A program made the translations under genes and the position numbers. DNA of 38,514 nucleotides from IMG/VR virus record IMGVR_UViG_2595698887_000001. One strand, written 5' to 3'. The notes under the pieces are model-generated. The model did no database searches. It had not been told where the DNA came from and saw only the letters and a list, made by a program, of their open reading frames with translations. Below, piece by piece: positions 17,752 to 33,538 of the stretch (positions within the stretch are counted from its first letter, which is position 1; each line of letters opens with the position of its first letter). This stretch comes from a virus. Lineage: Duplodnaviria; Heunggongvirae; Uroviricota; Caudoviricetes.

Positions 17752-17762
17752 GAGAATAACTG

Positions 17763-19277: not shown

Positions 19278-19278
19278 G

Positions 19279-19428: not shown

Positions 19429-19444
19429 AATCTGATACCAGAAT

Positions 19445-19483: not shown

Positions 19484-19552
19484 AGCATGTAAGGTAGGCG
19501 AACGTACACCATTTTATTAAAACCGCTCAGAAGAGCTTACAGGAGCTTTTAG

Positions 19553-20377
19553 ATGACCACAGTATTTCACACCACGGGTGTTCTTGACCACTCCAGGAAA
19601 CGCTTCGATATTCCGGATATCGAGATAGTCCTGAAAAAGATCTATGAAGACACAGAGCATCAGCTATCTTATCTTGAGTTTTCAAGTGATCCGGATGATG
19701 AGTCTGATTTTGATAAGCAAAAGGGTAAAGTGGAGTCAGAGCTTGAAGAGCTTAAAACATACGCAAAAAGCTCCGAGCTATCTGATTATCAGACTTATGT
19801 TGCTGATCTTGAGCGTCAAGTAGAGGCCTTAACGTGGAGTCTTATCAATGCTGCTCGTCGTGCAGATAATATGGCACACAACATTTTGTCTGTCGATAAC
19901 AAGATGGATAGGGCTGAGATTGCAGATGAATTCAACTACATAGTTGGTGATGCCACTAATGAACTTGGTTGTGATTTTGTATTGCGGAGGTGTCTCCAGG
20001 AGCGGGGATGGAATGAATGGCAACGCGATTACCTTGACAGCATAGTTCCAACAAGCACAATCATAGAGCTTCTTGTCCATGCAAGTACACCAAGCGATAT
20101 GATTATTGGTGTCGATAGCTGGATTGCCGTCGCTGGGGATCGAGTAACTCTTATGAATGGCAAGGATCGCCTACACCTGACGAAGGAATACGGAGAGATA
20201 GCCATTCATGCTGTCATAGATGGTGTTACGTCGTCGCTCAAGACCGGAGATATAAAGCATCTTTTCATGGACATTCTGCACCCAACGGATGAAGAGATCC
20301 AGATGTATGAAATGGCTCACCACAAGAGTTATGATATTTCTATGTGGAGAGATATTTTCGGTACGAAACCAAAATGA
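19553..20377 (+). CDS. hypothetical protein
   Basis: 274 aa; AGGAG RBS; last gene before the non-coding boundary. Confidence 0.65.
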   Translation: MTTVFHTTGVLDHSRKRFDIPDIEIVLKKIYEDTEHQLSYLEFSSDPDDESDFDKQKGKVESELEELKTYAKSSELSDYQTYVADLERQVEALTWSLINAARRADNMAHNILSVDNKMDRAEIADEFNYIVGDATNELGCDFVLRRCLQERGWNEWQRDYLDSIVPTSTIIELLVHASTPSDMIIGVDSWIAVAGDRVTLMNGKDRLHLTKEYGEIAIHAVIDGVTSSLKTGDIKHLFMDILHPTDEEIQMYEMAHHKSYDISMWRDIFGTKPK

Positions 20378-20418
20378 AAACTGTGTGATATTTGGTATGA
20401 TATTTGCCGGGATATTTG

Positions 20419-20432
20419 TTGATGGAAATCAA
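20419..20432. promoter_or_regulatory. FNR-consensus palindrome
   Basis: TTGAT-GGAA-ATCAA, a perfect TTGAT-N4-ATCAA. Confidence 0.45.
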
Positions 20433-20482
20433 AATGAAAATCGAAATGGTTTTCGAGATGGTTTTCCTTTCAGGTGTCCTGG

Positions 20483-20631
20483 TAAATCCATTTTATTGTG
20501 AGTTAAGATCTCAAACCCCCCGACAAATTATCTCAAATCTCCCAGAGCAACATGCTGATTGTTAAGGAAATTCACAGGCACGAATGCAGTAATTATGTCA
20601 AAATTCCAGAAATGCTAAATCCATTTTATTG
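20483..20631 (+). repeat. 16-bp direct repeat pair
   Basis: TAAATCCATTTTATTG at 20483 and 20616, each followed by N4-TTAAG. Confidence 0.75.
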
Positions 20632-20674
20632 GTTGTTAAGTCTGGGTACTCGATCACTTTTTCGATTTAGAAAT

Positions 20675-20850
20675 CGTATTTTTTCTATACCGCTCAAAAA
20701 ATTTTTCTCGGTAGAGGTCGGGTTCTCGATCGATTTTTCAAAATCGAGATCGTATTTTTTCTCGCTATCGAAAAAATTTTCGCGCCCGGTTCTCGATCGA
20801 CTTTTCAGTTTCAAAAACGTATTTTTTCTATAGACGCGAAAAAATTTTTT
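20675..20850. repeat. degenerate three-unit ~70-bp tandem repeat with A/T tracts
   Basis: CGTATTTTTTCT at 20675, 20751, 20818; GGTTCTCGATCGA at 20721, 20788; A-run/T-run junctions. Confidence 0.75.
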
Positions 20851-20904
20851 GGGATCAATAATTTTCTCACACACGCACACGCGATGTCAAGATAAATTTT
20901 TATG

Positions 20905-20953
20905 CGGAATGAGAAGCATTCTCATTTAGCTTTTTGAATGATAATCATTCTCA
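20905..20953. promoter_or_regulatory. two Fur-box-like sites
   Basis: TGAGAAG-C-ATTCTCA (20910) and TGATAAT-C-ATTCTCA (20939; 13/14 to the 7-1-7 consensus). Confidence 0.65.
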
Positions 20954-21010
20954 TTTGCAGAATGACGGGCACCCCCGGTGTTTTGTACTCCGGTTTCAAT
21001 GTTCCCGCTA
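20939..21010 (-). repeat. promoter-led element copy 1 (homolog of 30308-30379), possible ncRNA
   Basis: about 57/73 identical to copy 2 by manual alignment. Confidence 0.65.
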
Positions 21011-21017
21011 TGTCATA

Positions 21018-21045
21018 ATAATAGCATAGCCAGCCCCAGGATCAA
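21018..21045 (-). promoter_or_regulatory. sigma70 promoter facing non-coding DNA
   Basis: TTGATC-16-(TGC)TATTAT. Confidence 0.55.
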
Positions 21046-21223
21046 GCGCCTTTACAAATCTTTACAAATCTCAAAAGTCCGAACTACCGGCGATCCACCT
21101 TCCGACCAGGCACCCCGCCCGGTACGTTAGCCCCGCCTTTTCGCCGTGGGGTGGCGTTTTCTCTTCTGTCTGATAAATATAACCCAGGGCCGCACGGATT
21201 GCAAGCCCCAGGACAAAATATTT

Positions 21224-21415
21224 TTAATCCTCCCGGCTATCCCATAACACCGCGCCGGACTCACTCACCGCCTTTGTGCCATAGTAAAAACCGGACACGC
21301 TCGCACGTTCTGCAAAAGGCAACGGCACGATCCTAACCTGGGGCGCTCCGCGCTCATTCTCCCAGGTGTACAGGGTAACCATTGTTTCACTTGAAATCAC
21401 TTTTCCGCTTTCCAT
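21224..21415 (-). CDS. early hypothetical protein (divergent)
   Basis: 63 aa from MESGKV; GAGGTAAA RBS. Confidence 0.65.
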   Translation of the reverse strand: MESGKVISSETMVTLYTWENERGAPQVRIVPLPFAERASVSGFYYGTKAVSESGAVLWDSRED

Positions 21416-21445
21416 TCCGTTTACCTCTCTTGTGTGTGTCCCTAT

Positions 21446-21473
21446 ATAGTACACGATCCCCGCCGGGATGCAA
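21446..21473 (-). promoter_or_regulatory. early sigma70 promoter
   Basis: TTGCAT-16-TACTAT. Confidence 0.65.
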
Positions 21474-21518
21474 CCACACCCGGCAAAAAGATTTTTAAAA
21501 TATTTTTATCCAGGGGTA

Positions 21519-21547
21519 TTGACGGCATTTAGTAAAGCGTTTACTAT
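21519..21547 (+). promoter_or_regulatory. early sigma70 promoter
   Basis: TTGACG-17-TACTAT; AT-rich upstream. Confidence 0.8.
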
Positions 21548-21597
21548 TCATCTCATCAGGGCGACACACCGCCGCCCACACTCAAAAGGTAAAGCAA

Positions 21598-22128
21598 ATG
21601 GACACTATCGAAACTTTTAACTACTCTGAAAACGGCATTGATTTTACTGTTAACGTTGTTAACTTCAATGAATTTTCCGGGTTCGATGATCAATGGAAAA
21701 TGACCGACGATCACGAGGGCGGCGTGACGGTTCAAAATCCGCAAGCCTGCCGAAACTCTTACAAGTTCGCTATCCCGTTACAATACAGCCTCAAAGAAAG
21801 GATCGCACACCTGATAAGCCAGGGCGATGCTAACCCATCAGCTAACGCTTACAAGGCCGCACAAGAGGCATTAGAGCGCGATTTAAACGCTAGCGATTAT
21901 GGTTTCGTGGTAACTGCTACCGCAAACGGGATCACGCTCCTGGACGGTGAAACGCTGGGGTGTAGTTTCGATTACTCATATGATGATAACGAAACATTGA
22001 TCGACGCTGCAAAAGATGTTTACAAGGAAAACGGGATCGACGCTGAAGCCCTGGAAGCGGCAAAGAAAGCAGGCGCGGATCTGCTGTCTAATATCGACGG
22101 CCTGAAAAATATTTTAAAAGTAGCTTGA
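21598..22128 (+). CDS. early hypothetical protein
   Basis: 176 aa; AAAGGTAAA RBS. Confidence 0.8.
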   Translation: MDTIETFNYSENGIDFTVNVVNFNEFSGFDDQWKMTDDHEGGVTVQNPQACRNSYKFAIPLQYSLKERIAHLISQGDANPSANAYKAAQEALERDLNASDYGFVVTATANGITLLDGETLGCSFDYSYDDNETLIDAAKDVYKENGIDAEALEAAKKAGADLLSNIDGLKNILKVA

Positions 22129-22180
22129 TCCCCCGGTTCGGATCGGTTATCTTACTAACAAGCCGGGGACGCTCCCCGGC
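22125..22180 (+). promoter_or_regulatory. early promoter + leader hairpin
   Basis: TTGATC-17-TATCTT; GCCGGGGA-CGC-TCCCCGGC at 22162-22180. Confidence 0.8.
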
Positions 22181-22201
22181 ACTAACGAAAGGTAAAACAG
22201 A

Positions 22202-22498
22202 ATGAAAATTTCCGCTAACAAACAATTGATCGGCACTGTTAAAAATTATGTCAGGAATCCGTATGAGTTCGGCGGGTATCCTAAGATTTTGATCATGCGT
22301 GATGGCGGTTGCCTTTGTTCAAAATGCGCCCGTGAAAATTTCCCGCGCCTGCTGGAAGAGTTAAGGGATGAATGCGATCCGGCCTGGATGCCTGCCGGGG
22401 TAGATGTTTATTGGGAAGGGGCGGATCTGCCGTGTGATCACTGTAACACCCCGATCCCTAGCGCCTATGGCGATCCGGAAGATGACACCGAAGAATAA
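22202..22498 (+). CDS. early Zn-binding hypothetical protein
   Basis: GGYP...CLCSKC...CDHC...SAYGD. Confidence 0.8.
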   Translation: MKISANKQLIGTVKNYVRNPYEFGGYPKILIMRDGGCLCSKCARENFPRLLEELRDECDPAWMPAGVDVYWEGADLPCDHCNTPIPSAYGDPEDDTEE

Positions 22499-22507
22499 AA
22501 TTAATTG

Positions 22508-22537
22508 TTGACGCTGGCTAATGTCTGGGGCTATAAT
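22508..22537 (+). promoter_or_regulatory. early promoter
   Basis: TTGACG-18-TATAAT. Confidence 0.75.
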
Positions 22538-22588
22538 CTCCGGACATTGACAAGCGAAACAAACAACCACACTAAACGAGGTTACACC

Positions 22589-22918
22589 ATGAATAACTAT
22601 TTCAATTCCCGCGCCCTGGCCCGTACTGCTGCAAAATCAAACGGCGGCAAAGTGATCGACAACGGCACCGCCGCGCCTACTGGTAAACGCTGGGAAGTGA
22701 TCCCCGGCGTTATGGTGGAAGCAATCCAGGACACCGCCGATCAACGTGCTGAAATGGAACGCGCCCCGGTTGTTACTCTGGAAGTAAAAGCAGGCTATCG
22801 CAACCGCAAAGCGCCCCGTGTCTCTTATGTACACGACGCAAACGGCAAGCCGATCCCGGTGATGCACAAACGATCCCAGGTTGCCGCACGATTAGCGGCG
22901 CATTTAGCAAGAAATTAA
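22589..22918 (+). CDS. early hypothetical protein
   Basis: 109 aa from MNNYF; GAGGT RBS. Confidence 0.75.
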   Translation: MNNYFNSRALARTAAKSNGGKVIDNGTAAPTGKRWEVIPGVMVEAIQDTADQRAEMERAPVVTLEVKAGYRNRKAPRVSYVHDANGKPIPVMHKRSQVAARLAAHLARN

Positions 22919-22919
22919 T

Positions 22920-22949
22920 TTGACAAGCGCCGGGAATCCGGCGCATAAT
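22920..22949 (+). promoter_or_regulatory. early promoter with hairpin in the spacer
   Basis: TTGACA-18-CATAAT; GCGCCGG-GAAT-CCGGCGC. Confidence 0.7.
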
Positions 22950-22979
22950 ACCCAAACCAAACAAAACGAGGTAAACGAA

Positions 22980-23177
22980 ATGGCAAAGGCTCCACGTGTT
23001 AATAAATGGCTTTATGAAATCATCGTACAGGAAAGAACTTGTAACGGTTGGGAAGATTCTTGCGCCGAGGCAAATTGGTCTGATGCGGTAGCAACAAAGA
23101 AAGATTATCGCCGCAACGGGTACGAAGCCCGGATCATTGAACGCCGCACACCTAACCCGGATTATGTTGCAAAATAA
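22980..23177 (+). CDS. early hypothetical protein
   Basis: 65 aa from MAKAPR; GAGGTAAA RBS. Confidence 0.75.
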   Translation: MAKAPRVNKWLYEIIVQERTCNGWEDSCAEANWSDAVATKKDYRRNGYEARIIERRTPNPDYVAK

Positions 23178-23179
23178 AT

Positions 23180-23236
23180 TTGCAATCCTAAGCTAGATCG
23201 ATTACATTATAAATCAAGGCGGGAATGGTTCCCGCC
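23180..23236 (+). promoter_or_regulatory. early promoter + leader hairpin
   Basis: TTGCAA-17-TACATT; GGCGGGAA-TGG-TTCCCGCC. Confidence 0.75.
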
Positions 23237-23257
23237 ACACTGAAAAGGTAATACAAA

Positions 23258-23551
23258 ATGACTACCACAAATAAAACCACTACCGCCCCAGCAAAATTTT
23301 TCCTCGCTCGTATCTATTGCATGTATGACGGTAAAGAGTTCCCCACCGTGGATCTGATTGTTGATCACTCCCTGGAAGATGCAACCAACGAAGCCGAAAA
23401 CCGTTGCGCCACCGCTCACTATTCCTTTTCCGATATCGACGAAGTGAACGAAAGCGGTTATTGGTCTGATTGTGGCGCTCATGTTGTACGCGTTAAATCT
23501 GTAACAGAAATTAGCGCCGCCACCTATGAAGAGATAAAAAATCTCCTGTAA
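23258..23551 (+). CDS. early hypothetical protein
   Basis: 97 aa; AAAGGTAA RBS. Confidence 0.75.
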   Translation: MTTTNKTTTAPAKFFLARIYCMYDGKEFPTVDLIVDHSLEDATNEAENRCATAHYSFSDIDEVNESGYWSDCGAHVVRVKSVTEISAATYEEIKNLL

Positions 23552-23554
23552 GTA

Positions 23555-23610
23555 TTGACACCCCAGCGAGTAAAGCGGATAATTCTATTCAAGCCGGGAC
23601 GGTTCCCGGC
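23555..23610 (+). promoter_or_regulatory. early promoter + leader hairpin
   Basis: TTGACA-17-GATAAT; GCCGGGA-CGGT-TCCCGGC. Confidence 0.8.
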
Positions 23611-23630
23611 ACTGACCGAAGGTAAAGAAA

Positions 23631-24029
23631 ATGGCAAAGTTTAAAACCTCAATCAATCTGTATGACGCTGTGAACCGCCTGAAAGAAGTTTCACGCGAAA
23701 ATCAAACCGGGGATTTTTTCGTGGTTGTTGACTCCTTTGATTTTGGGCGTGATGTCAACGGTAACACGATCAACAAATACCGCGCCACGCTTCACCGTGG
23801 GGATCTGTTATCCGTGCAAAATGGTTACGCTGGTTTCGGGGTCACCGTCCTGGAATCTCCACGCCGCCGCGAACAATCCCACAATGAAGGGCAAAGCGCC
23901 GCGCTTTACTGGTTGGAAAAAATCGGTTATGATCTGGCTTATGAGTCTATGACTTATGCGCCCCACACCAAAAAGCAAGGCTATCGCCACGTTTACCGGG
24001 TAACGAACAATTATTTAAAGGGGCTTTAA
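23631..24029 (+). CDS. early hypothetical protein
   Basis: 132 aa; GAAGGTAAA RBS. Confidence 0.75.
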   Translation: MAKFKTSINLYDAVNRLKEVSRENQTGDFFVVVDSFDFGRDVNGNTINKYRATLHRGDLLSVQNGYAGFGVTVLESPRRREQSHNEGQSAALYWLEKIGYDLAYESMTYAPHTKKQGYRHVYRVTNNYLKGL

Positions 24030-24030
24030 C

Positions 24031-24174
24031 ATGTTTAATGTCGTGGTGATTAATAAGAAAACGGGTAAAAAAGTGGTGATGAATCGATCCCCGTTGTCAC
24101 ACGGTGAAGCCTGCGCTATGCTGTCAAAAATCACTCGTTACCCGTGGCGGGTTGAAAAAATAGAAAGTATTTAA
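24031..24174 (+). CDS. early hypothetical protein (below cutoff)
   Basis: MFNVVVINKKTGKK..., 47 aa. Confidence 0.6.
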   Translation: MFNVVVINKKTGKKVVMNRSPLSHGEACAMLSKITRYPWRVEKIESI

Positions 24175-24186
24175 AGGCGGTGTGAA

Positions 24187-24369
24187 ATGGTTGTAAGCAT
24201 GGATAACGGGCAAGTGTTGACGATCTTTAATTCTGCAAGCCGCACGATTGAGGACGTAAAGCAAGAGTCAAGCCAACGGATCGACAACCTAAAGATCCCC
24301 GGCAAGTTGTTAGATGATAGCTTGAAAGTTATTGCTATTTTTAATTCTTTTGGTAAAGAGGTTTTATAA
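24187..24369 (+). CDS. early hypothetical protein
   Basis: 60 aa; TAATG coupling to the next gene. Confidence 0.6.
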   Translation: MVVSMDNGQVLTIFNSASRTIEDVKQESSQRIDNLKIPGKLLDDSLKVIAIFNSFGKEVL

Positions 24370-24596
24370 TGAAAGTTAACAGTTTAGCGGCAAACCAGAC
24401 CGAGATCACAAAATCAAACGGCGATCAAGTATTTGTGAGTTATAGCACACCCGTAGCCGCGATCATTGGTGGGTTAAGTTATAAAACGGATCGAAAGTAT
24501 AGCGCCACCACTACGCGCCACGTTAACGCCTGGCTTGGGAATGGTGGGGTTAACGCCATAAGCAAACCACAAGATTTTTTCGATAATCTGATTTAA
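24369..24596 (+). CDS. early hypothetical protein
   Basis: SYSTPVA...YSATTTRHVNAW, recalled as a signature of a widespread small phage family. Confidence 0.75.
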   Translation: MKVNSLAANQTEITKSNGDQVFVSYSTPVAAIIGGLSYKTDRKYSATTTRHVNAWLGNGGVNAISKPQDFFDNLI

Positions 24597-24601
24597 ATGT
24601 G

Positions 24602-24640
24602 TTGACTCTTAATAGATAGGGCTTTAAGATAAGCCCTATC
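24602..24640 (+). promoter_or_regulatory. early promoter with a palindrome across the -10
   Basis: TTGACT-17-TAAGAT; GATAGGGCTT-TAAGAT-AAGCCCTATC. Confidence 0.75.
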
Positions 24641-24694
24641 AAGTAAGAGAAATAACCCGGCAATAATGCCAAACCAAACAAAAGGTAAATTATC

Positions 24695-25261
24695 ATGAAT
24701 AACAAAATCACTTTCAACGATCAAGACGTAGCCGTTTTTAACTTCCTGAAAGAAAAAGGAATTGAATTTAAAGCAGTACACGGCGGCGTTAACAACGATC
24801 CTAGTTGGGAAGCGGATCTGTTTTTCGTGTCTTTTGAGCGTAACGGCAAAATGTACCGTTCAGAATTTAAAACTGGTACAGGTCACCGCGTAGGCCGTCA
24901 TAGTGGCTTAACCTCTCAGGATAAAAAAGAACTTGATAAAGTTGGCGCACAAATCGCCATCGTAGATCAAAAGCACTGGACACGCGACGATTACAAGCGT
25001 AATGATAATAAAGCTATGTCTTTTGGTTATCGTGTTTACGTTGCGACACCTTGCGCCGCAAACGTGCTTTACTGCCTGCTGTCTGATATGTCTTTTGGTG
25101 ATGAAACTCATGCTGATTTTTGCGCTAATATGGGCTATGATGAGGACAGCCGCAAAGGTTTAGAAATGTATCTCGAATGTCAGAAAGTAGGACAGGAGAT
25201 CCGCAAAATCTTTACAGGTGAGGAACTGGAAGCCCTGCGCGAAATGTTAGAGGATTATTAA
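24695..25261 (+). CDS. early hypothetical protein
   Basis: 188 aa; LYCLLSD...DFCANMGYDEDSRK; AAAAGGTAAA RBS. Confidence 0.8.
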   Translation: MNNKITFNDQDVAVFNFLKEKGIEFKAVHGGVNNDPSWEADLFFVSFERNGKMYRSEFKTGTGHRVGRHSGLTSQDKKELDKVGAQIAIVDQKHWTRDDYKRNDNKAMSFGYRVYVATPCAANVLYCLLSDMSFGDETHADFCANMGYDEDSRKGLEMYLECQKVGQEIRKIFTGEELEALREMLEDY

Positions 25262-25264
25262 ACC

Positions 25265-25612
25265 GTGTTTAAAATCCTGTTTTTGGTGGCTGCTGCTGCT
25301 ATCTACTGGAAGATCCCCGCTAGACTATGGCGGGGAGTTCTCTGGATTTACTACGAATACAGGATCGGCAAAGTGTATCACTATATAGAATATAAGTTTC
25401 ACGGGAACCATTACCACACCCGGCGATCCGGGGCATTAAATGATCTTGAGGGTAACGGGCTATTGTGTGAGGTGAAAAAGCGAGGCGGCAAAATCACTTA
25501 TCACAAAGAAGGGACAAAAGAGCAGATCACCGAGATCATAGAGTGGCGAGCTAATGAGCTAGCAGAAAAGCAAGGCCGGGTCATTCAACATGTACACAAC
25601 AAACGAAAATAA
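25265..25612 (+). CDS. early membrane-anchored hypothetical protein
   Basis: 115 aa; hydrophobic N-terminus; GTG start. Confidence 0.6.
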   Translation: MFKILFLVAAAAIYWKIPARLWRGVLWIYYEYRIGKVYHYIEYKFHGNHYHTRRSGALNDLEGNGLLCEVKKRGGKITYHKEGTKEQITEIIEWRANELAEKQGRVIQHVHNKRK

Positions 25613-25626
25613 AACGAGGGTTCAAA

Positions 25627-25830
25627 ATGCGAAATATTGAGAAGATGACAAGCAAGCGTGATCGCCTGGCTTACGGTGAAGTAAACGAGCGCCGCCAACG
25701 TAACGACAAACTACACAAGCCGGAAAGGGTCGCTAAAACCTGGACGCCTGACCGTTATGATCCAAACCTTAATAAAAGGTTAGCGGATCGCAAACGTGCT
25801 TTACAGTGGCAAGCCGTACAAAATGACTAA
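25627..25830 (+). CDS. early basic hypothetical protein
   Basis: 67 aa; GAGGG RBS. Confidence 0.65.
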   Translation: MRNIEKMTSKRDRLAYGEVNERRQRNDKLHKPERVAKTWTPDRYDPNLNKRLADRKRALQWQAVQND

Positions 25831-25832
25831 AC

Positions 25833-25861
25833 AAAGGCCGGGATAATTTCCCGGCTTTTTT
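25833..25861 (+). terminator. intrinsic terminator
   Basis: GCCGGGA-TAATT-TCCCGGC followed by T6. Confidence 0.8.
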
Positions 25862-25862
25862 C

Positions 25863-26067
25863 TATGCAAAAAAGTGAATTTAAAGAGATCTCAGGCAAGC
25901 AATGCACTTGCCAGGGTTCGACGTTGAAGGGCTTAGAGAGGCTTACAGGAGCTTTAAAGCGGTATCACGACACCGCGCCACGCTCAAAAGGCCTTAAATT
26001 TAGTCACAACGTGAAACTATTTGCATATGATTGAATGGTTATGCAAAACGGTGAATATTGTAAAGAT
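25863..26067 (+). repeat. intergenic module 1 (ARG-box-like array)
   Basis: TATGCAA-N4-GTGAAT at 25863 and 26040; TTACAGGA at 25943; 18-bp boxes at 26010, 26030, 26050. Confidence 0.75.
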
Positions 26068-26079
26068 TTAATAATTTTC

Positions 26080-26107
26080 TTGCGTCCTGGTGTGAATCTG
26101 TTAATAT
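26080..26107 (+). promoter_or_regulatory. early promoter
   Basis: TTGCGT-16-(TGT)TAATAT. Confidence 0.65.
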
Positions 26108-26158
26108 TTAACACGTAGGGCGACATAGTGAAGCCCACACAAACAAAAGGTAAATATC

Positions 26159-26449
26159 ATGTGTAAAGTAATGAATGCTCTGACTAAAAACGCCCTCGAA
26201 AACAAATACCTGGGCAAAATGGTTTATCATAATTATGGTCAAATCGGGTTCGGTGTGGTCACCGGGATCGATGACCGTGATCCCACAAAATTACGTTTAC
26301 GCGTGAAGTTTACCCGCAACAATACCCCGGCGCATATCCAAAAATATGACAACCGGGCGGATCGGGTTCGTTGCCTCCTCCCTCAATCGATCACCGTGTC
26401 CCGTGTGCGTTATGAGGACTACAACCGCACAAACCAGATCAAAAAATAG
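26159..26449 (+). CDS. early hypothetical protein
   Basis: 96 aa; AAAAGGTAAA RBS. Confidence 0.7.
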   Translation: MCKVMNALTKNALENKYLGKMVYHNYGQIGFGVVTGIDDRDPTKLRLRVKFTRNNTPAHIQKYDNRADRVRCLLPQSITVSRVRYEDYNRTNQIKK

Positions 26450-26450
26450 C

Positions 26451-26478
26451 TTGCAATCTGCGCCGCTTATGGTATCTT
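26451..26478 (+). promoter_or_regulatory. early promoter
   Basis: TTGCAA-16-(TGG)TATCTT; leader GGCAATAATGCC also seen at 24659. Confidence 0.65.
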
Positions 26479-26525
26479 TATTCATAGGCGGCAATAATGC
26501 CACCACTTAAAGAGAGGTAAACAAA

Positions 26526-26627
26526 ATGTTAGATTATACAAACCTTTGGTGTGTGGCTGCTCTGGTATCTTTCATCGTTGCGGCCTGCTCTGTGGTCGCT
26601 ATCCATATCATTTTAGAGGATCGTTAA
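26526..26627 (+). CDS. 33-aa single-TM peptide
   Basis: MLDYTNLWCVAALVSFIVAACSVVAIHIILEDR; GAGGTAAA RBS. Confidence 0.65.
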   Translation: MLDYTNLWCVAALVSFIVAACSVVAIHIILEDR

Positions 26628-26628
26628 T

Positions 26629-26847
26629 ATGTTTGGGTTTATCGTTATGGCCTGCCATATCTCGCTAACTTCAATGAAGCTTGAGTGTGATTGGAATGTT
26701 AAAAAAACATTCCCCACGGAGCAAGCTTGCAACGTGTACGAAAACGAATACACGTTAGGTAAGGGCGAGCAGATCGGGATCTGTGATGAGCTAGACCCCG
26801 GCGTCAAAGAAGGCGATAAACGCCCTATCCTCACCCTCAAAAAGTAA
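26629..26847 (+). CDS. early hypothetical (possibly exported) protein
   Basis: 72 aa; hydrophobic start; Cys residues. Confidence 0.6.
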   Translation: MFGFIVMACHISLTSMKLECDWNVKKTFPTEQACNVYENEYTLGKGEQIGICDELDPGVKEGDKRPILTLKK

Positions 26848-26857
26848 GGTAACGATC

Positions 26858-27154
26858 ATGTTTGAAGTATTCGCGGGAATGTGTTTTTATAGCGCCCTTG
26901 CGCTTAGACAGTGTGATGATTTTATTGTTGAATCATACGACGATCCGCTAACCTGCAATATCGTAGCGCGTGGCTATTCCGAGGATCGCCGCTGGATTAA
27001 TCCGGCTTGCATCCCATCGCCGGAAGTCGAACCAATGCCAGAAGGTGAAGCCGTGGAAGGTGATCCGGCGGTTGCCGTAACATCCTTTTTTGTGGATAAT
27101 TTGAGCGCTCAAAGTCTGGTTGAAATGTACGCCACACAAGAGGCCAAAAAATAA
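26858..27154 (+). CDS. early hypothetical protein
   Basis: 98 aa; AAGGTAA RBS; Cys pattern like the preceding ORF. Confidence 0.65.
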   Translation: MFEVFAGMCFYSALALRQCDDFIVESYDDPLTCNIVARGYSEDRRWINPACIPSPEVEPMPEGEAVEGDPAVAVTSFFVDNLSAQSLVEMYATQEAKK

Positions 27155-27156
27155 AT

Positions 27157-27216
27157 TTGACAACTGGGAACGGTTGATCAATAATTACCAGACAAGGCCG
27201 GGAGCGGTTCCCGGTC
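27157..27216 (+). promoter_or_regulatory. early promoter + leader hairpin
   Basis: TTGACA-17-AATAAT; GGCCGGGA-GCGGT-TCCCGGTC. Confidence 0.7.
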
Positions 27217-27233
27217 ACCTGGTGAGGTGAATC

Positions 27234-27350
27234 ATGAAAGGTTACAAAGTAGAATACACTACAGAAAACCCGGTTTACACTGAGGCGCGGATCATGTGTC
27301 GTCTGGTGTGGTCTTTCGTGATCTTCCTGCTGTTATTATCTTTATTCTAA
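27234..27350 (+). CDS. 38-aa peptide with C-terminal TM
   Basis: MKGYKVEY...LVWSFVIFLLLLSLF; GAGGT RBS. Confidence 0.6.
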   Translation: MKGYKVEYTTENPVYTEARIMCRLVWSFVIFLLLLSLF

Positions 27351-27365
27351 AACGAGGTTTTAAAA

Positions 27366-27707
27366 ATGGAACTGGCAAATAAATTTTTCTTCCTGGCTGG
27401 CGTTACTGACAAAGCAAAATGTGATTTTCGTCGTTTCGATGATAAAACGTTATTGCGCTTTTGTCATATCAATGACTCTGTGAACGCTGATCGCCTGGAT
27501 ATCATGATCCGCACGGAAACCAATATTGATCACACTACACAAAAGCCAGTCAAAGATCATTACATCTCTTATCAGCTTGAAAGCGTGAAAGGCTATGTAA
27601 AACAGGCTGACAGCCTGCCGATCCGTGATGCTCTGGACGTTTTCGCGGTAGTTGTTGAGATTGTTAATGATGTTTTTCCGGTTGACTCTGAAAACCAGAT
27701 CGGCTAA
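27366..27707 (+). CDS. early hypothetical protein
   Basis: 113 aa; GAGGT RBS. Confidence 0.7.
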   Translation: MELANKFFFLAGVTDKAKCDFRRFDDKTLLRFCHINDSVNADRLDIMIRTETNIDHTTQKPVKDHYISYQLESVKGYVKQADSLPIRDALDVFAVVVEIVNDVFPVDSENQIG

Positions 27708-27740
27708 AGTATTCTAACAGGCCGGGGATTGTCCCCGGTC
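27682..27740 (+). promoter_or_regulatory. early promoter + leader hairpin
   Basis: TTGACT-17-TAAAGT; GGCCGGGGA-TTG-TCCCCGGTC. Confidence 0.75.
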
Positions 27741-27760
27741 ACAATAGAAAGGTAAATATT

Positions 27761-27994
27761 ATGGCACGTTACACTAAAACCGTGGATATCTGGGACGCTC
27801 AAACCAACGTTGCAAAATTGCAGCCGGGGCAATGGGTAGAGGCTGGCAAAGGCGGTGATCGCGGGATCTTCTGTGGTGTTAAACGCTCTGGATCTGTGGT
27901 TGTTGCCTGGAAGAATAACGCAAGCAACCATAAGCGCGACGGGTATCGTGGCTATATTTCCGATCTGTTTTCTTATGCTAAAGTTTGGGCTTAA
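27761..27994 (+). CDS. early hypothetical protein
   Basis: 77 aa; GAAAGGTAAA RBS. Confidence 0.75.
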   Translation: MARYTKTVDIWDAQTNVAKLQPGQWVEAGKGGDRGIFCGVKRSGSVVVAWKNNASNHKRDGYRGYISDLFSYAKVWA

Positions 27995-27996
27995 TT

Positions 27997-28329
27997 ATGA
28001 AAAATAAAAATGTTTATTGGTCATCCTCATGCGGTCGCCTTTGTCTGATTTTCCGTGACCGTGACCAGGTAGAAGAGATCGCCCACTCTGGGGACTGTGA
28101 AGCCTCCACCGTTGAAGCCTTGCCCTATTTCCGGGACGGCTTACAGTTTAGCGCCTACACCGATCAAATGATCCGGGATTACCTGGCCGAAACCGGGATC
28201 GAGCGTGAAGGGGTGGACGGGATCGACAACATGGATCGCCACACCCTGGAAATGTACCTGTTATGGATCGCCGCTGGTGATATGCTGGACGTTTTCAACG
28301 TTGGCGATGATTACGGGGAAGATGAATAA
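27997..28329 (+). CDS. early acidic hypothetical protein
   Basis: 110 aa; IAHSGDC...LLWIAAGD. Confidence 0.7.
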   Translation: MKNKNVYWSSSCGRLCLIFRDRDQVEEIAHSGDCEASTVEALPYFRDGLQFSAYTDQMIRDYLAETGIEREGVDGIDNMDRHTLEMYLLWIAAGDMLDVFNVGDDYGEDE

Positions 28330-28335
28330 AACCGC

Positions 28336-28394
28336 TTGCAAGCCAGGCGCGGATCGGTTAATATCTTTTTGAGGCCGGGGAATACCTCCCCGGC
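28336..28394 (+). promoter_or_regulatory. early promoter + leader hairpin
   Basis: TTGCAA-17-TAATAT; GCCGGGGA-ATACC-TCCCCGGC. Confidence 0.75.
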
Positions 28395-28415
28395 AAGCCA
28401 GAAAGGTAAACAAAA

Positions 28416-28805
28416 ATGCAAAATTTCATCACTATCACCAATAACGATAAACTGCAATCTCTGATCGGTATCCTTAACGATGTTTCACCGTTTATCGTTA
28501 AAAATCTTTACTCACATTTGAAAAATGTTAAACCCGCTATTTGGTCTGCTCATTGCTATGACCAGGACGAAAGCGCGGCGGCATACATGATCGAAATGTT
28601 AAAAGATAGTATGCAACTTTGTTTATCTCAAAGCGTTATTAATGAAGTTGATAGCCGTTTATCTCTGGCTATTGAATACCAGATGCAAGCAATGTATAAT
28701 CAGTTAGACATTGAAGAGCAGCAAGATCAAGATTCATTCTGGGATCGTGCTGATGCTCAAAGCGCCTTTGATGACCGTTTAGCAATGTACGCTAACGAAT
28801 ACTAA
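28416..28805 (+). CDS. early acidic hypothetical protein
   Basis: 129 aa; GAAAGGTAAA RBS. Confidence 0.75.
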   Translation: MQNFITITNNDKLQSLIGILNDVSPFIVKNLYSHLKNVKPAIWSAHCYDQDESAAAYMIEMLKDSMQLCLSQSVINEVDSRLSLAIEYQMQAMYNQLDIEEQQDQDSFWDRADAQSAFDDRLAMYANEY

Positions 28806-28815
28806 ACAAAACAAG

Positions 28816-28834
28816 GCCGGGGACGTTCCCCGGC
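28816..28834 (+). promoter_or_regulatory. leader hairpin without a clear promoter
   Basis: GCCGGGGA-CGT-TCCCCGGC followed by the GAAAGGTAAA RBS. Confidence 0.65.
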
Positions 28835-28855
28835 ATAATCTGAAAGGTAAAGCAA

Positions 28856-29080
28856 ATGTTAAAGAATCAAACCGGGCAAACTGAATTTTTACGCAACCTT
28901 ATCGCAGGTGAAAAGGCTATATGGTTCTGTGAAGGTGCAAACGTAGATCCGGAAATGCGGAAAATGACCGCCACGGTGTGCAAGGCGAAACTAGGCTTTA
29001 AAATCCGTCAATCAAAAGCCTTGATCGTTACTCCTGATTCTATCCCTCAAGCAATCATCATTATTGAACGTATATCATGA
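28856..29080 (+). CDS. early hypothetical protein
   Basis: 74 aa. Confidence 0.7.
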   Translation: MLKNQTGQTEFLRNLIAGEKAIWFCEGANVDPEMRKMTATVCKAKLGFKIRQSKALIVTPDSIPQAIIIIERIS

Positions 29081-29304
29081 AAAAAGTAATTTTTGATAAC
29101 AAGAAAAACACGGTAACCGCTCAAAAGGTCGGGGAATACATCGAACTTTCGGATCTGTATAGTGACGCGCCGATCCGCTTGTCACCTGCTGAATATAAAA
29201 ATGCTGATTTGGTTAAACATGTTGTCGCTATGGAGTTCGAATTTTTCGAATATCTAGCCTCTTTTGAGGATGATTTTAATAGTGATGGGCTTTACGGCGC
29301 ATGA
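29077..29304 (+). CDS. early hypothetical protein
   Basis: 75 aa; ATGA coupling. Confidence 0.65.
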   Translation: MKKVIFDNKKNTVTAQKVGEYIELSDLYSDAPIRLSPAEYKNADLVKHVVAMEFEFFEYLASFEDDFNSDGLYGA

Positions 29305-29450
29305 TCATTTACGTCAACGTTTTAAACGGGAATCGCTACCGCTGGCGCGGTTCCCGTGTCCTGGCTCTGATGTCTGGTGAATGGGTTCAAAGTCAGCACT
29401 TACGCCCCGCCGATCTCTCACATTTTCCGTTTATAGGTATCAAAGAATGA
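29301..29450 (+). CDS. early hypothetical protein (below cutoff)
   Basis: MIIYVNVLNG..., 49 aa; ATGA coupling at both ends. Confidence 0.6.
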   Translation: MIIYVNVLNGNRYRWRGSRVLALMSGEWVQSQHLRPADLSHFPFIGIKE

Positions 29451-29923
29451 AATATGAAATCACCCCGGAAGATATCAAAACACGCACCCTTGATAGCGCC
29501 CGTTACACCTTAACAAAGCGTGAAGGCCTGCAACTATTTTCAATCTGTTTTATTCATCCTGATGATCCTGATTTTCAATCTGATCCGGTTGAGTTCTGGG
29601 CTAGTAGCTGGGAAACGGCTTATGATGAGCTGATGAATAATGTAAACACTTTCGAATCTTACGGCCTGTCAAGTTTTAGCCAGACAGATCGCCCCCTGGA
29701 GGATGAGAACGTTAGAGCGTGGATCAACCACTACAACGCCCTTTATAACCTCGTGTTTATTCATGGGGAGAGTAAAGAAGAGATGATCAAGAAAGCGCTA
29801 GACTTTAATGATCATTGTTCGTATGTACTCCGCAAAATGTGCGAGCTAGTGGACGCCCTGAGAAGTGCGGAGAGGTTCGACGGCGGATCGGTCTATCGTG
29901 AATCAATGCACCGTTACAGATAA
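29447..29923 (+). CDS. early hypothetical protein
   Basis: 158 aa from MKYEIT. Confidence 0.7.
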   Translation: MKYEITPEDIKTRTLDSARYTLTKREGLQLFSICFIHPDDPDFQSDPVEFWASSWETAYDELMNNVNTFESYGLSSFSQTDRPLEDENVRAWINHYNALYNLVFIHGESKEEMIKKALDFNDHCSYVLRKMCELVDALRSAERFDGGSVYRESMHRYR

Positions 29924-29933
29924 GGGTAAAACA

Positions 29934-30251
29934 ATGACACTTCAAAAAATGATCGCGGTTCGCTGGGCTACCTTAAACCGACTTTGCCCGGAGGATAATC
30001 TGGGATATCGGACACGCCCGGAGCAATTCCGGCGCGGCCTGGCTGCACTTGAAAAGGCGATAGAAAAACACGCTATTGCAACCATTAAAGATCGTGAAGG
30101 TGAATTGTGTTTTGTGGTGGCAATAGATGAGGGGCTTTATCTGGATGATCGAGAATGGTTATCAGTTACATATATCAAACCGTCCCACGGCTTAACACCC
30201 CATGATCATTATTCTGGCTACTGGCTGCCCGCTGGGATAACTATCCGCTAA
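29934..30251 (+). CDS. early hypothetical protein
   Basis: 105 aa from MTLQK; AAGGGTAAAA RBS. Confidence 0.7.
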   Translation: MTLQKMIAVRWATLNRLCPEDNLGYRTRPEQFRRGLAALEKAIEKHAIATIKDREGELCFVVAIDEGLYLDDREWLSVTYIKPSHGLTPHDHYSGYWLPAGITIR

Positions 30252-30271
30252 AATCTTTACAATTCCGGGGC

Positions 30272-30300
30272 TTGTTTTCTGTCCCGGTTTTTGTTATTCT
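30272..30300 (+). promoter_or_regulatory. sigma70 promoter facing non-coding DNA
   Basis: TTGTTT-17-(TGT)TATTCT; overlaps a CCGGG hairpin with a T run. Confidence 0.5.
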
Positions 30301-30307
30301 TTTATGG

Positions 30308-30379
30308 AAGCGGCAACGATGGACACCGGAGGAAACACACCGGAGGTGCCCGTTATTCCGGTAATGAGAATTACTATCA
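30308..30379 (+). repeat. promoter-led element copy 2 ending in a Fur-like box
   Basis: homologous to 20939-21010; TGAGAAT-T-ACTATCA at 30365-30379 (12/14). Confidence 0.65.
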
Positions 30380-30395
30380 ACAACCCTCAAAATCC

Positions 30396-30600
30396 TATGC
30401 AAAATAGTGAATATGGCGAGATCTCCGCTAAAATGGGCTAGGGTACAACCTGGACGCAAAACCGCTTAAAACGCGTTACAGGACGTTTAAAGGCCATATA
30501 AAAATAGCTTGACACGTAAAAACGGCTAAAAAGTAATTTCAACATGAAATCAATTGCATAGCGTTGCATAATCATTCAAAAAGTGAATAAACAGGCTTTT
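30396..30600 (+). repeat. intergenic module 2 (ARG-box-like array)
   Basis: TATGCAA-N4-GTGAAT at 30396; TTACAGGA at 30476; GT-TGCAT-AATC-ATTCA-AA at 30563-30580. Confidence 0.75.
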
Positions 30601-30622
30601 TGTAAAGAAGTGTAAAGAGCCA

Positions 30623-30651
30623 TTGACGTGATGATCCCCCTATAGTAATAT
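30623..30651 (+). promoter_or_regulatory. early promoter
   Basis: TTGACG-17-TAATAT. Confidence 0.75.
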
Positions 30652-30706
30652 TTATCTCGTAGGGCAAACAAACGAAATCAAACAAACAGACTAAGAGGTA
30701 AATCAA

Positions 30707-31072
30707 ATGTTAAACGCTAAAACTGTTGCGCATGTTGGCTGGGATTCAAACGCTTATGAGGGTGAATGGTGCGAAGATTACCGCCGCACTGAATGGGCTT
30801 ACAAAATCCAGATCGAACTGGTAGACGGTTCACGCTTTTATCTTGATCAATCCTTACTGACTTCTGAAACTCATGATTTTGAAGAAATTAAAGCTATTCA
30901 GGATCGCCGTGTAGCTCGCATTGAAAAACATCTGGCTGGTGGTGGCTATCTTAAAGAGGCTCATTGGTATCCTACCGATCCGGCTTATGGCTCTGAAGCT
31001 TATCAGCGCCTGGATGATATGGGAGAGTTTAAAGCCCGTGAAGAAAAAGAGTTTCAACTTAACGGACGTTAA
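30707..31072 (+). CDS. early hypothetical protein
   Basis: 121 aa; HWYPTDPAYGSEAY; GAGGTAAA RBS. Confidence 0.75.
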   Translation: MLNAKTVAHVGWDSNAYEGEWCEDYRRTEWAYKIQIELVDGSRFYLDQSLLTSETHDFEEIKAIQDRRVARIEKHLAGGGYLKEAHWYPTDPAYGSEAYQRLDDMGEFKAREEKEFQLNGR

Positions 31073-31087
31073 CATATTAAAAGGCGC

Positions 31088-31116
31088 TTGCAATGGTGAG
31101 CGCTTTTTGATAAATT
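31088..31116 (+). promoter_or_regulatory. early promoter
   Basis: TTGCAA-17-TAAATT. Confidence 0.65.
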
Positions 31117-31149
31117 AATGTTTCACCAAACAAAACGAGGTAAACGGCA

Positions 31150-31473
31150 ATGACTAAAACAGAATTTTTCGAAATCATCACCGATCATCTGAAACGCCTT
31201 AACGGTCAATTTAACGCTTTCGGTGAATATGTGGCCTTTGACGTTCCAAAATACACCGCCGCCGATCTTGCCCCTTATGAGTTCCACGAAGATCCGGAAA
31301 ATTACGCTAAATGGAAAGCGGAAAACCCGGATTATCCTTGGGTGGCTCATGCGTCAGGTTATACTATGAAAAATTGCTGGTTAGTCGGCCTTATCAATCA
31401 TCGCTCATATGAAGCCGCCACCAAACAAGCGAAGATTTTCGCACGTTGGATCACTGAATACCAAACCAAATAA
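31150..31473 (+). CDS. early hypothetical protein
   Basis: 107 aa; GAGGTAAA RBS. Confidence 0.75.
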   Translation: MTKTEFFEIITDHLKRLNGQFNAFGEYVAFDVPKYTAADLAPYEFHEDPENYAKWKAENPDYPWVAHASGYTMKNCWLVGLINHRSYEAATKQAKIFARWITEYQTK

Positions 31474-31522
31474 ACCCACCTGGGGCGCTAGTCGCCCCGC
31501 TATCATGTGAGAAATAAATAAA

Positions 31523-31789
31523 ATGTATCCAGACAATTACGAAATTATTCACAACGTAAGCCACAACGGAAATTTTGTATCATTGGCACGCCGGGAGACT
31601 TTCGATCCTTTCGATGGTTCGATGAGTTCCCGCACTTATGAAGTAAACTGGCAGATCGACGGGGAAACCAACTACAACCACGATTTAAAATATGTAGCGC
31701 CTGCCCTGGCAATTTTCAAACGTAAAGTAGAAACGATGTTAAAGCCGATCAACCTTTACAACCTGATCCACGATAAACAAGCCAGTTAA
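31523..31789 (+). CDS. early hypothetical protein
   Basis: 88 aa; last ORF of the island. Confidence 0.65.
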   Translation: MYPDNYEIIHNVSHNGNFVSLARRETFDPFDGSMSSRTYEVNWQIDGETNYNHDLKYVAPALAIFKRKVETMLKPINLYNLIHDKQAS

Positions 31790-31811
31790 CACCCATTCAG
31801 GATCACAAGAT

Positions 31812-31836
31812 AAGGCCGGGATTATTCCCGGCTTTT
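31812..31836 (+). terminator. intrinsic terminator
   Basis: GCCGGGA-TTAT-TCCCGGC followed by TTTT. Confidence 0.7.
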
Positions 31837-31886
31837 GCATATCATAACCCACACCAAACCACAACCCCGAATTTTTTACCGTCATT

Positions 31887-32091
31887 TATGCAATAAAGTG
31901 AATTTAAAGAGATCTCTTTAAAGACATATAACGGCAAGCCTAACAGATAAACCCTCTCAAAACTCGTTATATTGCGTTTAATCGTGTATCATTACCCGCC
32001 TTTGACTCACTCACACCCCAAAAATGATAACGCAGGTTATCAAGTGAATAAACACCGTGTTTTTATGCAAATTGAGTGAATACGAAGCAAA
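31887..32091 (+). repeat. intergenic module 3 (ARG-box-like)
   Basis: TATGCAA-N4-GTGAAT at 31887; TATGCAA-N5-GTGAAT at 32064; 20-bp palindrome at 31903-31922. Confidence 0.7.
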
Positions 32092-32218
32092 AACCCTGAA
32101 ATGATAGCTTTTCTCATCTAACCTATTGTGTGGACTGTCTTTTTTTGAGCATAGAAATCATCTTTTGTCAAATAAAATATCGTTCGCGTTATCGGGGTGA
32201 GTGGCGCGAGCGGAGCGA

Positions 32219-32429
32219 GCGACACAATAACACGGGGTAACTCAAACGATAATAAATATCGTTTTCGTTCGCGTTATCGTGGCTCGTTAGCGCCTAAGCG
32301 TTAACAGACAGGATGACTAGAATGATGAATAATTAACAATGCAACTATTACATAGTTGAAGTATTTTATAACCTCGCCACGATAACACCGATTAGCTGAT
32401 CGCTAATCGCCCCCGTGTTATTGTGTCGC
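32219..32429. other. multibranch stem-loop element (ncRNA or ssDNA structure candidate)
   Basis: 19-bp perfect outer inverted repeat; 11-bp inner stem; four further hairpins. Confidence 0.7.
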
Positions 32430-32611
32430 CAGGTTATGAAGATCAAAGGCATTTAATTAGCCTTTAATGGTTGACAAACCATGATTAATAGAACTGTAAA
32501 CCAGGCCGCTGGCCTGCTAATTGCTGGTTTTCTTGAGCATGAAAAGGCCTGAAGTGTCAAGTGTTTTATTGATAGGAAAAGTCTATTAAAGCCAGGCGTA
32601 GCAAGGCCTGA

Positions 32612-32790
32612 TGATAACTATTCGCATATGAGAACGGATGCTCAAAAGCATGTAATTGCTAAACACAATTCTTCCTCCCTGTCAAGCTTTTTGTGGCAGA
32701 TTTACAAAATATTTTCCATTTGAGAATGATTTTCATTTCGAAACTGAAATCGAAATCGTATTCAGAATGATTATCATTTGCATTCTCATC
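32612..32790. promoter_or_regulatory. three Fur-box-like sites
   Basis: TGATAAC-T-ATTCGCA (32612), TGAGAAT-G-ATTTTCA (32721), TCAGAAT-G-ATTATCA (32762) followed by TTTGCATTCTCA. Confidence 0.6.
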
Positions 32791-32934
32791 GACAAAACAC
32801 CCCACAAAGTGAATAATAACAGCGTGAAACTGTCATGGTGGTAACATGTAGCAGGCTATTGGTTGCTGTGTGGTATGGTTCACTGATGCAATGATAACAT
32901 GTGTGACTATATGGCCTGTCGCCAGGTGATCTGT

Positions 32935-32962
32935 GGTGCGCATAACGTGTATTATGTTAAAT
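32935..32962 (+). other. dif: dif-like XerC/XerD recombination site
   Basis: GGTGCGCATAA-CGTGTA-TTATGTTAAAT; both 11-bp arms identical to E. coli dif; central hexamer differs from TGTATA at 2 positions. Confidence 0.92.
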
Positions 32963-33538
32963 AGAGACATTCACACAAATATAACCAAGTCAAGAGCAAA
33001 TCGTGCTGTAACAGACGTAAACTGTCGCATTGCTAATAGTTGCACCTGTAATCATTAGTTTCGTTGCGTTATCATCATGCAATCATCGTGCCAAAAACTC
33101 GATGGGGTCTCGTGGTCAGACCTCTCAGATATTTTGTAAAGATCCTTGACAACCCGGAGGGCCTGTGATTGTCCGTCTAACACATCAGACATAGAGATTG
33201 CGCCCAGGAACACCCTGTCCCTTGGCCTTGCCCCTTCAGGATATTTTCGTGCCAGAACACATAAAGAGAGGGGCCTGTTTACGTTTCCCTCCGGGCGGGG
33301 GAGGGGGTGGGTTTTAGTTAGTGATGAGCCACTGATAAGGCGATATGTTTATACCATCGACATATTGTGGGGTATATGTTTATAGCACCGTAGGTGTTTG
33401 CCTTTGGCAAAGGGCTTTGCCCCGTAATGTTTATGAAATGGCGTTTTATCGACATGACAAGATGTTAACAGTTTGTACACTGCTTCGCGCAGGGGTGGTG
33501 TTTGTATCCTCCAGCTTCAGGAGATGTGGCTTACACAA

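Follow-up and report, generated by a model that had tools for sequence, protein, structure and literature searches.

The window analysed here, a stretch of 38,514 nucleotides from the viral record IMGVR_UViG_2595698887_000001 (IMG/VR), contains, between positions 20378 and 33532, an island of small genes framed by two long gaps; within the right gap, inside a predicted direct terminal repeat (DTR), lies a sequence that closely resembles dif, the chromosomal site of the XerC and XerD recombinases of enterobacteria, and it is this site, along with the other conserved elements around the island, that we describe. Sequence comparison identifies the window as a Seunavirus-like member of the Vequintavirinae, with the phages EC152, LNA4 and 4MG as its closest relatives, and the source phage is, by this comparison, a virulent PVP-SE1/4MG-type myovirus of enterobacteria. 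The region 20378-33532 is 92-97% identical to Enterobacter phage EC152 and Escherichia phages LNA4 and 4MG over 84-88% of its length; its identity to PVP-SE1 and to further members of Seunavirus and Mydovirus is about 80%. Genes run leftward from 1 to 13767, rightward from 13727 to 31789 and leftward again from 33446, and the two long stretches without convincing genes span 20378-21597 and 31790-33445, on either side of the island, which comprises about 28 small rightward genes (21598-31789, + strand), served by sigma-70 promoters close to the consensus and by terminators with GC hairpins. For the larger island proteins, the only matches are to PHROGs without an assigned function, and none is to a Pfam family; no tRNAs were found, and a comparison of the window and of both gaps with Rfam, at the gathering threshold and at E<=1, yielded no family.

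The dif-like XerC/XerD core site occupies 32935-32962 (+ strand; positions 274-301 of the repeat), with the XerC arm on the left, the centre CGTGTA in the middle and the XerD arm on the right. The reference dif sequence of E. coli has the centre TGTATA (PMC2731167), and the phage 28-mer, GGTGCGCATAA CGTGTA TTATGTTAAAT, is identical to it at 26 of the 28 positions, both 11-bp arms being exact and the two mismatches falling in the centre. When the window was searched with E. coli dif, this was the single match, and none was obtained in 100 shuffled windows, which bears out the dif site named in an earlier note made from this DNA alone. The conservation across related phages that the same note had proposed as a check was found as well: about 370 bp around the site are conserved in 65 phage records, and the 28-mer is kept in all 12 phage loci examined, from five genera, among them Seunavirus, Mydovirus, Avunavirus and Henunavirus, with hosts in Escherichia, Enterobacter, Salmonella, Cronobacter, Klebsiella, Proteus and Erwinia. 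Across these loci, no change occurs in the XerD arm, and the XerC arm varies in ways also known from the dif sites of hosts; at the centre stands CGTGTA, CGTGTT or GGTGTA and in no case the host TGTATA. In the site, 23 of the 28 columns (82%) are invariant, compared to 16% in the remainder of the repeat. The open reading frames (ORFs) annotated across the site in the relatives disagree in frame and strand and share no conserved reading frame, so its conservation is not of protein-coding origin.

The right gap appears, by homology, to be the concatemer junction region and to hold the predicted genome ends, because the repeats of Klebsiella phage DP, of KPP-1 and of Hena1 map to 32662-33177. The DP record carries an annotated 514-bp repeat at both of its ends that covers the homologous place; in KPP-1, a 514-bp direct terminal repeat at homologous coordinates was identified by coverage and PhageTerm (PMC9862379); and Erwinia phage Hena1, in its IMG/VR copy, has an exact 519-bp repeat that starts with AACAC, ends with TTGTCCGTC and includes the dif-like site at position 293. 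Terminal repeats of 459 bp are reported for the Vequintavirus Gotham (PMC7471380). Alignment of DP to the window places the borders of the predicted 516-bp repeat between TGCTA and AACAC on the left and between GTCCGTC and TAACAC on the right. No conserved gene was found inside the repeat, where the ORFs annotated in the relatives likewise vary in frame and strand. The start of the EC152 record corresponds to position 20655 of the window, inside an array of three repeats in the left gap, and was considered as a terminus; that record has no matching end repeat, and its start was therefore treated as an assembly cut. The records of LNA4 and of several Salmonella phages also begin or end in one or the other of the two gaps; the repeats seem to break assemblies, and the record ends in this phage group seem not to be termini. 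An "attL" feature at the start of record PQ002170 was likewise set aside, as it looks like automatic annotation. The word (C)TTTACAAA(A)T, which may bind a phage protein, occurs at 21050 and 21060 in the left gap, at 30255, ahead of the second of the repeat modules described below, and at 32701 and, in reverse, 33129 in the right gap; the last two copies are inverted relative to each other and lie some 40-50 bp inward of the two borders of the repeat, beside GTCAAG/CTTGAC.

A search of the whole 4MG genome revealed no tyrosine recombinase. In a survey of one genome per species (185,579 species), the phage-type site was present in only four Acinetobacter genomes, in the form of pdif-like sites, so that the GGTGTA/CGTGTA centre is used in natural Xer sites; the same survey found no enterobacterial species genome with the phage-type site and no sign of integration. 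In the literature library searched by full text, no paper joins dif or XerCD to terminal repeats, to the Vequintavirinae or to virulent phages in general, and the papers that describe the Gotham, KPP-1 and DP repeats make no mention of the dif-like site.

A second group of conserved signals resembles the operators of the host regulator Fur. A search of the window with the 19-bp consensus GATAATGATAATCATTATC, allowing at most five mismatches, gave 13 strand-hits against 1.6 expected, and the two large gaps contain six distinct positions against 0.12 in simulations (0 of 300 simulations reached this number); the Fur-like boxes of the earlier note are thus a genuinely enriched word family, and their positions are preserved in 4MG, PVP-SE1 and Mydo. 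The sites at 20907/20934, 30360, 32722 and 32763, and the weaker ones at 30151 and 32248, agree with 14-16 of the 19 consensus positions when those of the relatives are included. The best are 20934 and 32763 (15 of 19 each, the latter on the lower strand), with 20907 and 32722 as their partners; the site at 30151 lies inside an ORF, contrary to the claim that all of the signals are non-coding. In the left gap, the two boxes (GAATGAGAAGCATTCTCATTT and GAATGATAATCATTCTCATTT; 20907-20963, + strand) are arranged such that the second falls between a weak -35 sequence, TTGAAT (20934), and a -10 sequence, CAGAAT (20958). In the DTR, two promoter-like sites (32701-32817, + strand; TTTACA-N18-AATGAT and TCGACA-N17-AATAAT) are overlapped by the boxes at 32722-32740 and 32763-32787. 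Six genera, drawn from two subfamilies, have a Fur-like box with an AGAAT word upstream of the same conserved element, described below. Before this element, the boxes of Certrevirus, Phapecoctavirus, Justusliebigvirus and Avunavirus often form arrays of two or three and reach 16 of 19 positions. The non-coding stretch 30300-30385 (gcggcaacgatggacaccggagg...), which ends in a Fur-like box, is about 90% identical to Proteus phage Mydo and is much better conserved than the neighbouring genes. The boxes overlie promoter-like sites both within the repeat and within the left gap and probably act as operators, with host Fur as their likeliest reader. E. coli genomes searched with the left box gave only matches with E>=2, which are uninformative, and we found in the literature neither Fur boxes in lytic phages nor relevant transcriptomes of Vequintavirinae.

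The island itself is distinguished by its GATC content, with 119 occurrences in 10.2 kb (11.7 per kb) compared to 4-5 per kb in other gene blocks, an enrichment of about 3-fold. The island ORFs contain 109 GATC tetramers against 74.4+-5.1 in synonymous shuffles that keep the protein and the codon usage fixed (z 6.8), whereas in three other gene blocks the same shuffle test gives z<1; GATC is the most enriched of the 256 tetramers in the island (z 6.8-6.9). In the corresponding islands of 4MG, PVP-SE1 and Mydo, GATC reaches 10.4-12.3 per kb, compared to 3-6 per kb in their flanks, and the excess reported in the earlier note accordingly recurs in three relatives. No classical Dam was found in 4MG; the only candidate GATC-modifying enzyme found there is a putative methyltransferase of 226 amino acids that belongs to phrog_799 ("DNA methyltransferase"), with a sub-threshold Dam-like match (at about 98.6 kb of the 4MG record; L024 1300-1980).

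Several further elements populate the gaps and the island. The A-tract repeats of the left gap are three modules of about 62 nucleotides (20645-20849, no strand assigned; start-to-start distances 76 and 67), each containing an imperfect palindrome, CTCGATCG...AAAATCGAGATCG, along with GTATTTTTTCT and an A6T5 tract; they are strongly conserved in 4MG, PVP-SE1 and Mydo. An origin with iterons or an operator array is possible for this array. A 98-residue winged-helix protein (16780-17076; Pfam HTH_36; PHROG replication initiation, O-like) is encoded 3.6 kb upstream. A sigma-70-like promoter, TTGACA-N18-TG-GAAAAT (20861-20890, - strand), which is a consensus match only (10 of 12 positions), faces the array. 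The FNR consensus of the earlier note is present as one exact TTGATGGAAATCAA (TTGAT-N4-ATCAA) at 20419, but it is absent from the aligned place in all three of 4MG, PVP-SE1 and Mydo. KOPS (FtsK-orienting polar sequences), Chi, DnaA, CRP and IHF words occur in the window at chance level only, as judged by word counts.

Farther to the right lies a deeply conserved non-coding element (21050-21165, + strand) that consists of two copies of CTTTACAAAT, a near-invariant portion of about 90 nucleotides, and a GC hairpin with a T-rich tail (21133-21156); it is 72-80% identical across Vequintavirinae and Stephanstirmvirinae and carries, after the two copies, a C/U-rich stretch, GATCCACCTTCCGACC, within a stem. 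A structured RNA was considered and rejected for this element, the overall fold being not significant (z -1.3), with almost no covariation and no Rfam match. Between it and the early promoter, a small leftward ORF (21224-21415, - strand; 63 codons from an internal ATG) stands alone and is annotated as hypothetical in EC152, 4MG, PVP-SE1 and Mydo. That promoter, TTGACG-N17-TACTAT (21519-21547, + strand), precedes the first island gene and is invariant in 4MG, PVP-SE1 and Mydo.

Three repeat modules share the word TATGCAAAAnAGTGAAT...GAGATCTC at 25863, 30396 and 31887. In every module a related second box follows at a distance of 155-185 bp, every module is preceded by a terminator, and 4MG, PVP-SE1 and Mydo all retain the word. 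Module 1 (25863-26110, + strand; TATGCAAAAAAGTGAAT..GAGATCTC, second box at 26040) has a promoter downstream. Module 2 belongs to a segment (30360-30650, + strand) conserved in 4MG and Mydo, in which the Fur-like box at 30360-30378 is followed by the module (30396; second box at 30581) and by the promoter TTGACG-N17-TAATAT (30623). No gene lies downstream of module 3 (31887-32140, + strand; further boxes at 32042 and 32064), which stands directly before a folded element. The fixed geometry that had been noted is real and conserved, but the label of ARG boxes does not hold: with the 18-bp palindromic consensus WNTGAATWWWWATTCANW and at most three mismatches, there are 2 matches against 0.71 expected, 47 of 300 simulations reach this number, and the best matches carry three mismatches. 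The module word starts with ATG and opens a mini-ORF whose product would start with MQNSEYGEIS in module 2 of the window, in 4MG and twice in Mydo; in the other copies the reading frame ends after 2-14 codons, and no Shine-Dalgarno sequence was seen. Copies of the word also occur at L018 13233 and 16932.

The folded element after module 3 is a multibranch inverted repeat (32181-32429, no strand assigned) closed by a 19-bp stem (32219-32237 paired with 32411-32429). The multibranch hairpin of the earlier note is thus substantiated: compared to shuffles, the fold has z -8.0 as DNA and -8.2 and -8.5 as RNA of the two strands, and, among 10 phages, compensatory double changes are seen at 8 of the 57 predicted pairs, with almost no pair disrupted. 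The energy does not assign a strand, being -105.9 kcal/mol for both, and there is no match in Rfam. The element ends 232 bp before the terminal repeat; in T7, a hairpin beside the concatemer junction has reportedly been proposed as an intermediate in the duplication of the terminal repeat. It is just as possible that the element, placed after module 3, functions as RNA.

Taken as a whole, the region is best read as a chromosome-end and early-control region in which the dif-like site would be read by host XerCD. The property under selection is most simply the binding of the site by host XerC and XerD, and the host enzymes would be the ones to bind because the close relative 4MG encodes no recombinase. 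A role of such recruitment in circularising or resolving the genome is plausible because the site sits in the terminal repeat. Infecting linear DNA would carry two copies of the site in direct order and concatemers one copy per junction, so that Xer recombination between phage copies could close the genome into a circle or release monomer circles from concatemers. The altered centre would disfavour exchange with chromosomal dif and restrict recombination to phage partners, as in cer and psi. The Fur-like boxes would serve as operators of the promoter-like sites that they overlie; the island would be an early block transcribed by host RNA polymerase, located at one chromosome end; and its GATC excess would be selected at the DNA level for a Dam-related purpose. 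We favour, tentatively and at slightly less than even chances, the view that a virulent myophage of the Seunavirus type here carries several control elements that are independent of one another and conserved in its lineage, among them a dif-like site read by XerCD, and that these are not parts of one system.

Several known systems share some of these features. Chromosomal dif of E. coli and other Enterobacterales has the same 11-bp XerC and XerD arms around a 6-bp centre, but its centre is TGTATA and it is located at the replication terminus, whereas the phage site, with CGTGTA in the window and never TGTATA in the relatives, lies in a terminal repeat and lacks KOPS polarity. The plasmid sites cer (ColE1) and psi (pSC101) are likewise host-Xer cores on a foreign replicon, with a centre unlike that of dif that keeps recombination within the element, and the likeness extends to the roughly 270 bp of conserved DNA on the XerC side of the phage site; however, cer and psi need ArgR or ArcA sites and PepA sites, whereas the phage side has no ARG box and only Fur-like, operator-like words. 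Integrative mobile elements exploiting Xer (IMEX), such as CTX-phi, VGJ-phi, TLC-phi and the gonococcal island, likewise lack a recombinase of their own and borrow XerCD through a dif-like site, but they are small integrating elements, whereas here the carrier is a 148-kb virulent myovirus with no integrated copy in any enterobacterial species genome of the survey and, judging from 4MG, no XafT-like activator. In the Cre-lox system of phage P1, a site present twice on infecting linear DNA could similarly close a circle without RecA; P1, however, encodes the recombinase itself, and only some of its permuted genomes contain lox twice, whereas here the enzyme would be that of the host and the site is in every repeat. 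The short exact repeats of T7 and T3 and the reported 459-514-bp repeats of Vequintavirinae agree with the one predicted here in length, defined ends, conserved border words and the presence of repeats and an inverted-repeat element by the junction, but no dif-like site is described for T7. The pdif sites of Acinetobacter have the same centre (GGTGTA or CGTGTA) and the same XerD arm, TTATGTTAAAT, but a different XerC arm (ATTTCGTATAA), and they belong to dif modules on the plasmids or chromosomes of a host that is unrelated.

A number of observations weigh against the favoured reading. The DTR of the window phage is placed by homology to other genera and not by reads of this phage. Chromosomal-type dif normally requires FtsK for the activation of XerD, but no known activator, that is, no FtsK-gamma, FtsK-like or XafT-like (DUF3653) protein, was found in the whole 4MG genome. 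KOPS near the dif-like site are neither enriched (4 against 3.1 expected) nor polarised, being on one strand only, and the nearest, at 33298, belongs to a hairpin and is oriented away from the site. No ARG box above chance was found beside the site or elsewhere in the non-coding regions, and no other recognised accessory site of the cer/psi type was seen there, although no search aimed at ArcA or PepA sites was made. Besides, phages with T7-type terminal repeats replicate and package without site-specific recombination, so it is not evident why it would be needed; a phage protein, and not Fur, could be the reader of the Fur-like word; and CGCC is also enriched in the island (66 against 36.8, z 6.6), which means that codon-context bias could account for part of the GATC signal.

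Several alternatives deserve separate consideration. That the GATC excess of the island merely follows from codon-pair or mutational bias within a block of small genes exchanged recently, with no selection for the signal, seems to us unlikely, although it is the alternative that we would take most seriously. GATC is nearly confined to two codon phases (GAT-C 52, G-ATC 50, the third 6), the GAT and ATC codons are preferred in the island, and the enrichment of CGCC is almost as strong, all of which speaks for this view; yet the excess survives shuffles that preserve both protein and codon usage, is not seen in the three other gene blocks and is maintained at the same level in 4MG, PVP-SE1 and Mydo despite their differing gene content. 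Somewhat less probable still is the possibility that XerCD binds the dif-like site without recombining it, the complex functioning as a handle or a barrier, for example, in stopping FtsK or other translocases, in septum placement, in marking the end for packaging or in titrating scarce host recombinases. The conservation of both arms, the lack of an XerD activator among the 4MG proteins and the dispensability of a recombinase for T7-type replication all fit binding alone, and XerCD-dif is known to stop FtsK (PMC2800217). Binding alone, however, would not require that the centre be conserved as well, in the forms CGTGTA, CGTGTT and GGTGTA, and the 6-bp spacing of a recombination-proficient site is retained.

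With about the same low probability, the dif-like and Fur-like words might both be read by phage proteins, of the packaging machinery or of early regulation, with the likeness to host sites stemming from ancestral capture or from coincidence. Both types of words are located in the repeat among phage-specific conserved words (CTTTACAAA(A)T, GTCAAG and the border words), most phage genes have no assigned function, and the Fur-like word ends in CATTCTC where the consensus has CATTATC; but a match of 26 of 28 positions to dif, with exact arms and an XerD arm invariant across five genera, is hard to obtain by chance, and the Fur-like boxes match 15-16 of the 19 consensus positions in several lineages. 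A more elaborate version of Xer recombination, in which the DTR is a self-contained, FtsK-independent site of the cer/psi kind, with the Fur-like boxes on the XerC side in place of ArgR or ArcA sites, such that the genome would be closed or resolved depending on the iron state, strikes us as distinctly improbable. Least probable is the integrated platform put forward in the earlier note, namely, host XerCD, ArgR with PepA, Fur, FNR and Dam/SeqA acting jointly on the segment injected first, by analogy with T5, so as to organise or protect it, to circularise it or to gate it nutritionally. In its favour, the GATC excess, the Fur-like boxes and the dif site are genuine features situated at or near one chromosome end, and the notion of a genome end is upheld insofar as the right margin of the region holds the predicted ends. 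In contrast, the ARG boxes are at chance level and the ArgR/PepA part is not supported; the FNR site is not conserved; and the T5 analogy fails, since the pre-early genes of T5 are inside a long terminal repeat, in a region bounded by an injection-stop signal, whereas here the repeat is of about 516 bp and the island is outside it. Furthermore, the elements are up to 12 kb apart and differ in kind, being packaging signals, promoters and operators, terminators, a folded element and a codon-level GATC signal, with nothing that links them. Thus, the original observation is partly confirmed and its interpretation partly supported, and there is no reason to retain those parts of the hypothesis that concern ARG boxes, FNR and the analogy with T5.

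Returning to the favoured reading, the borrowing of host XerCD is known for plasmids and for small integrating elements but not for large virulent tailed phages, and a dif site in the terminal repeat of a virulent phage would be, as far as sequence can tell, a new form of Xer exploitation. The Fur-like operators and the GATC-rich early block would be two more possible ties between infection and host physiology. Several phages of this kind serve, or have been put forward, as therapeutic agents against E. coli, Salmonella, Klebsiella and Cronobacter, and the retention of a dif core in the terminal repeat throughout the subfamily points to a host-dependent step in the way in which they handle their chromosome ends.

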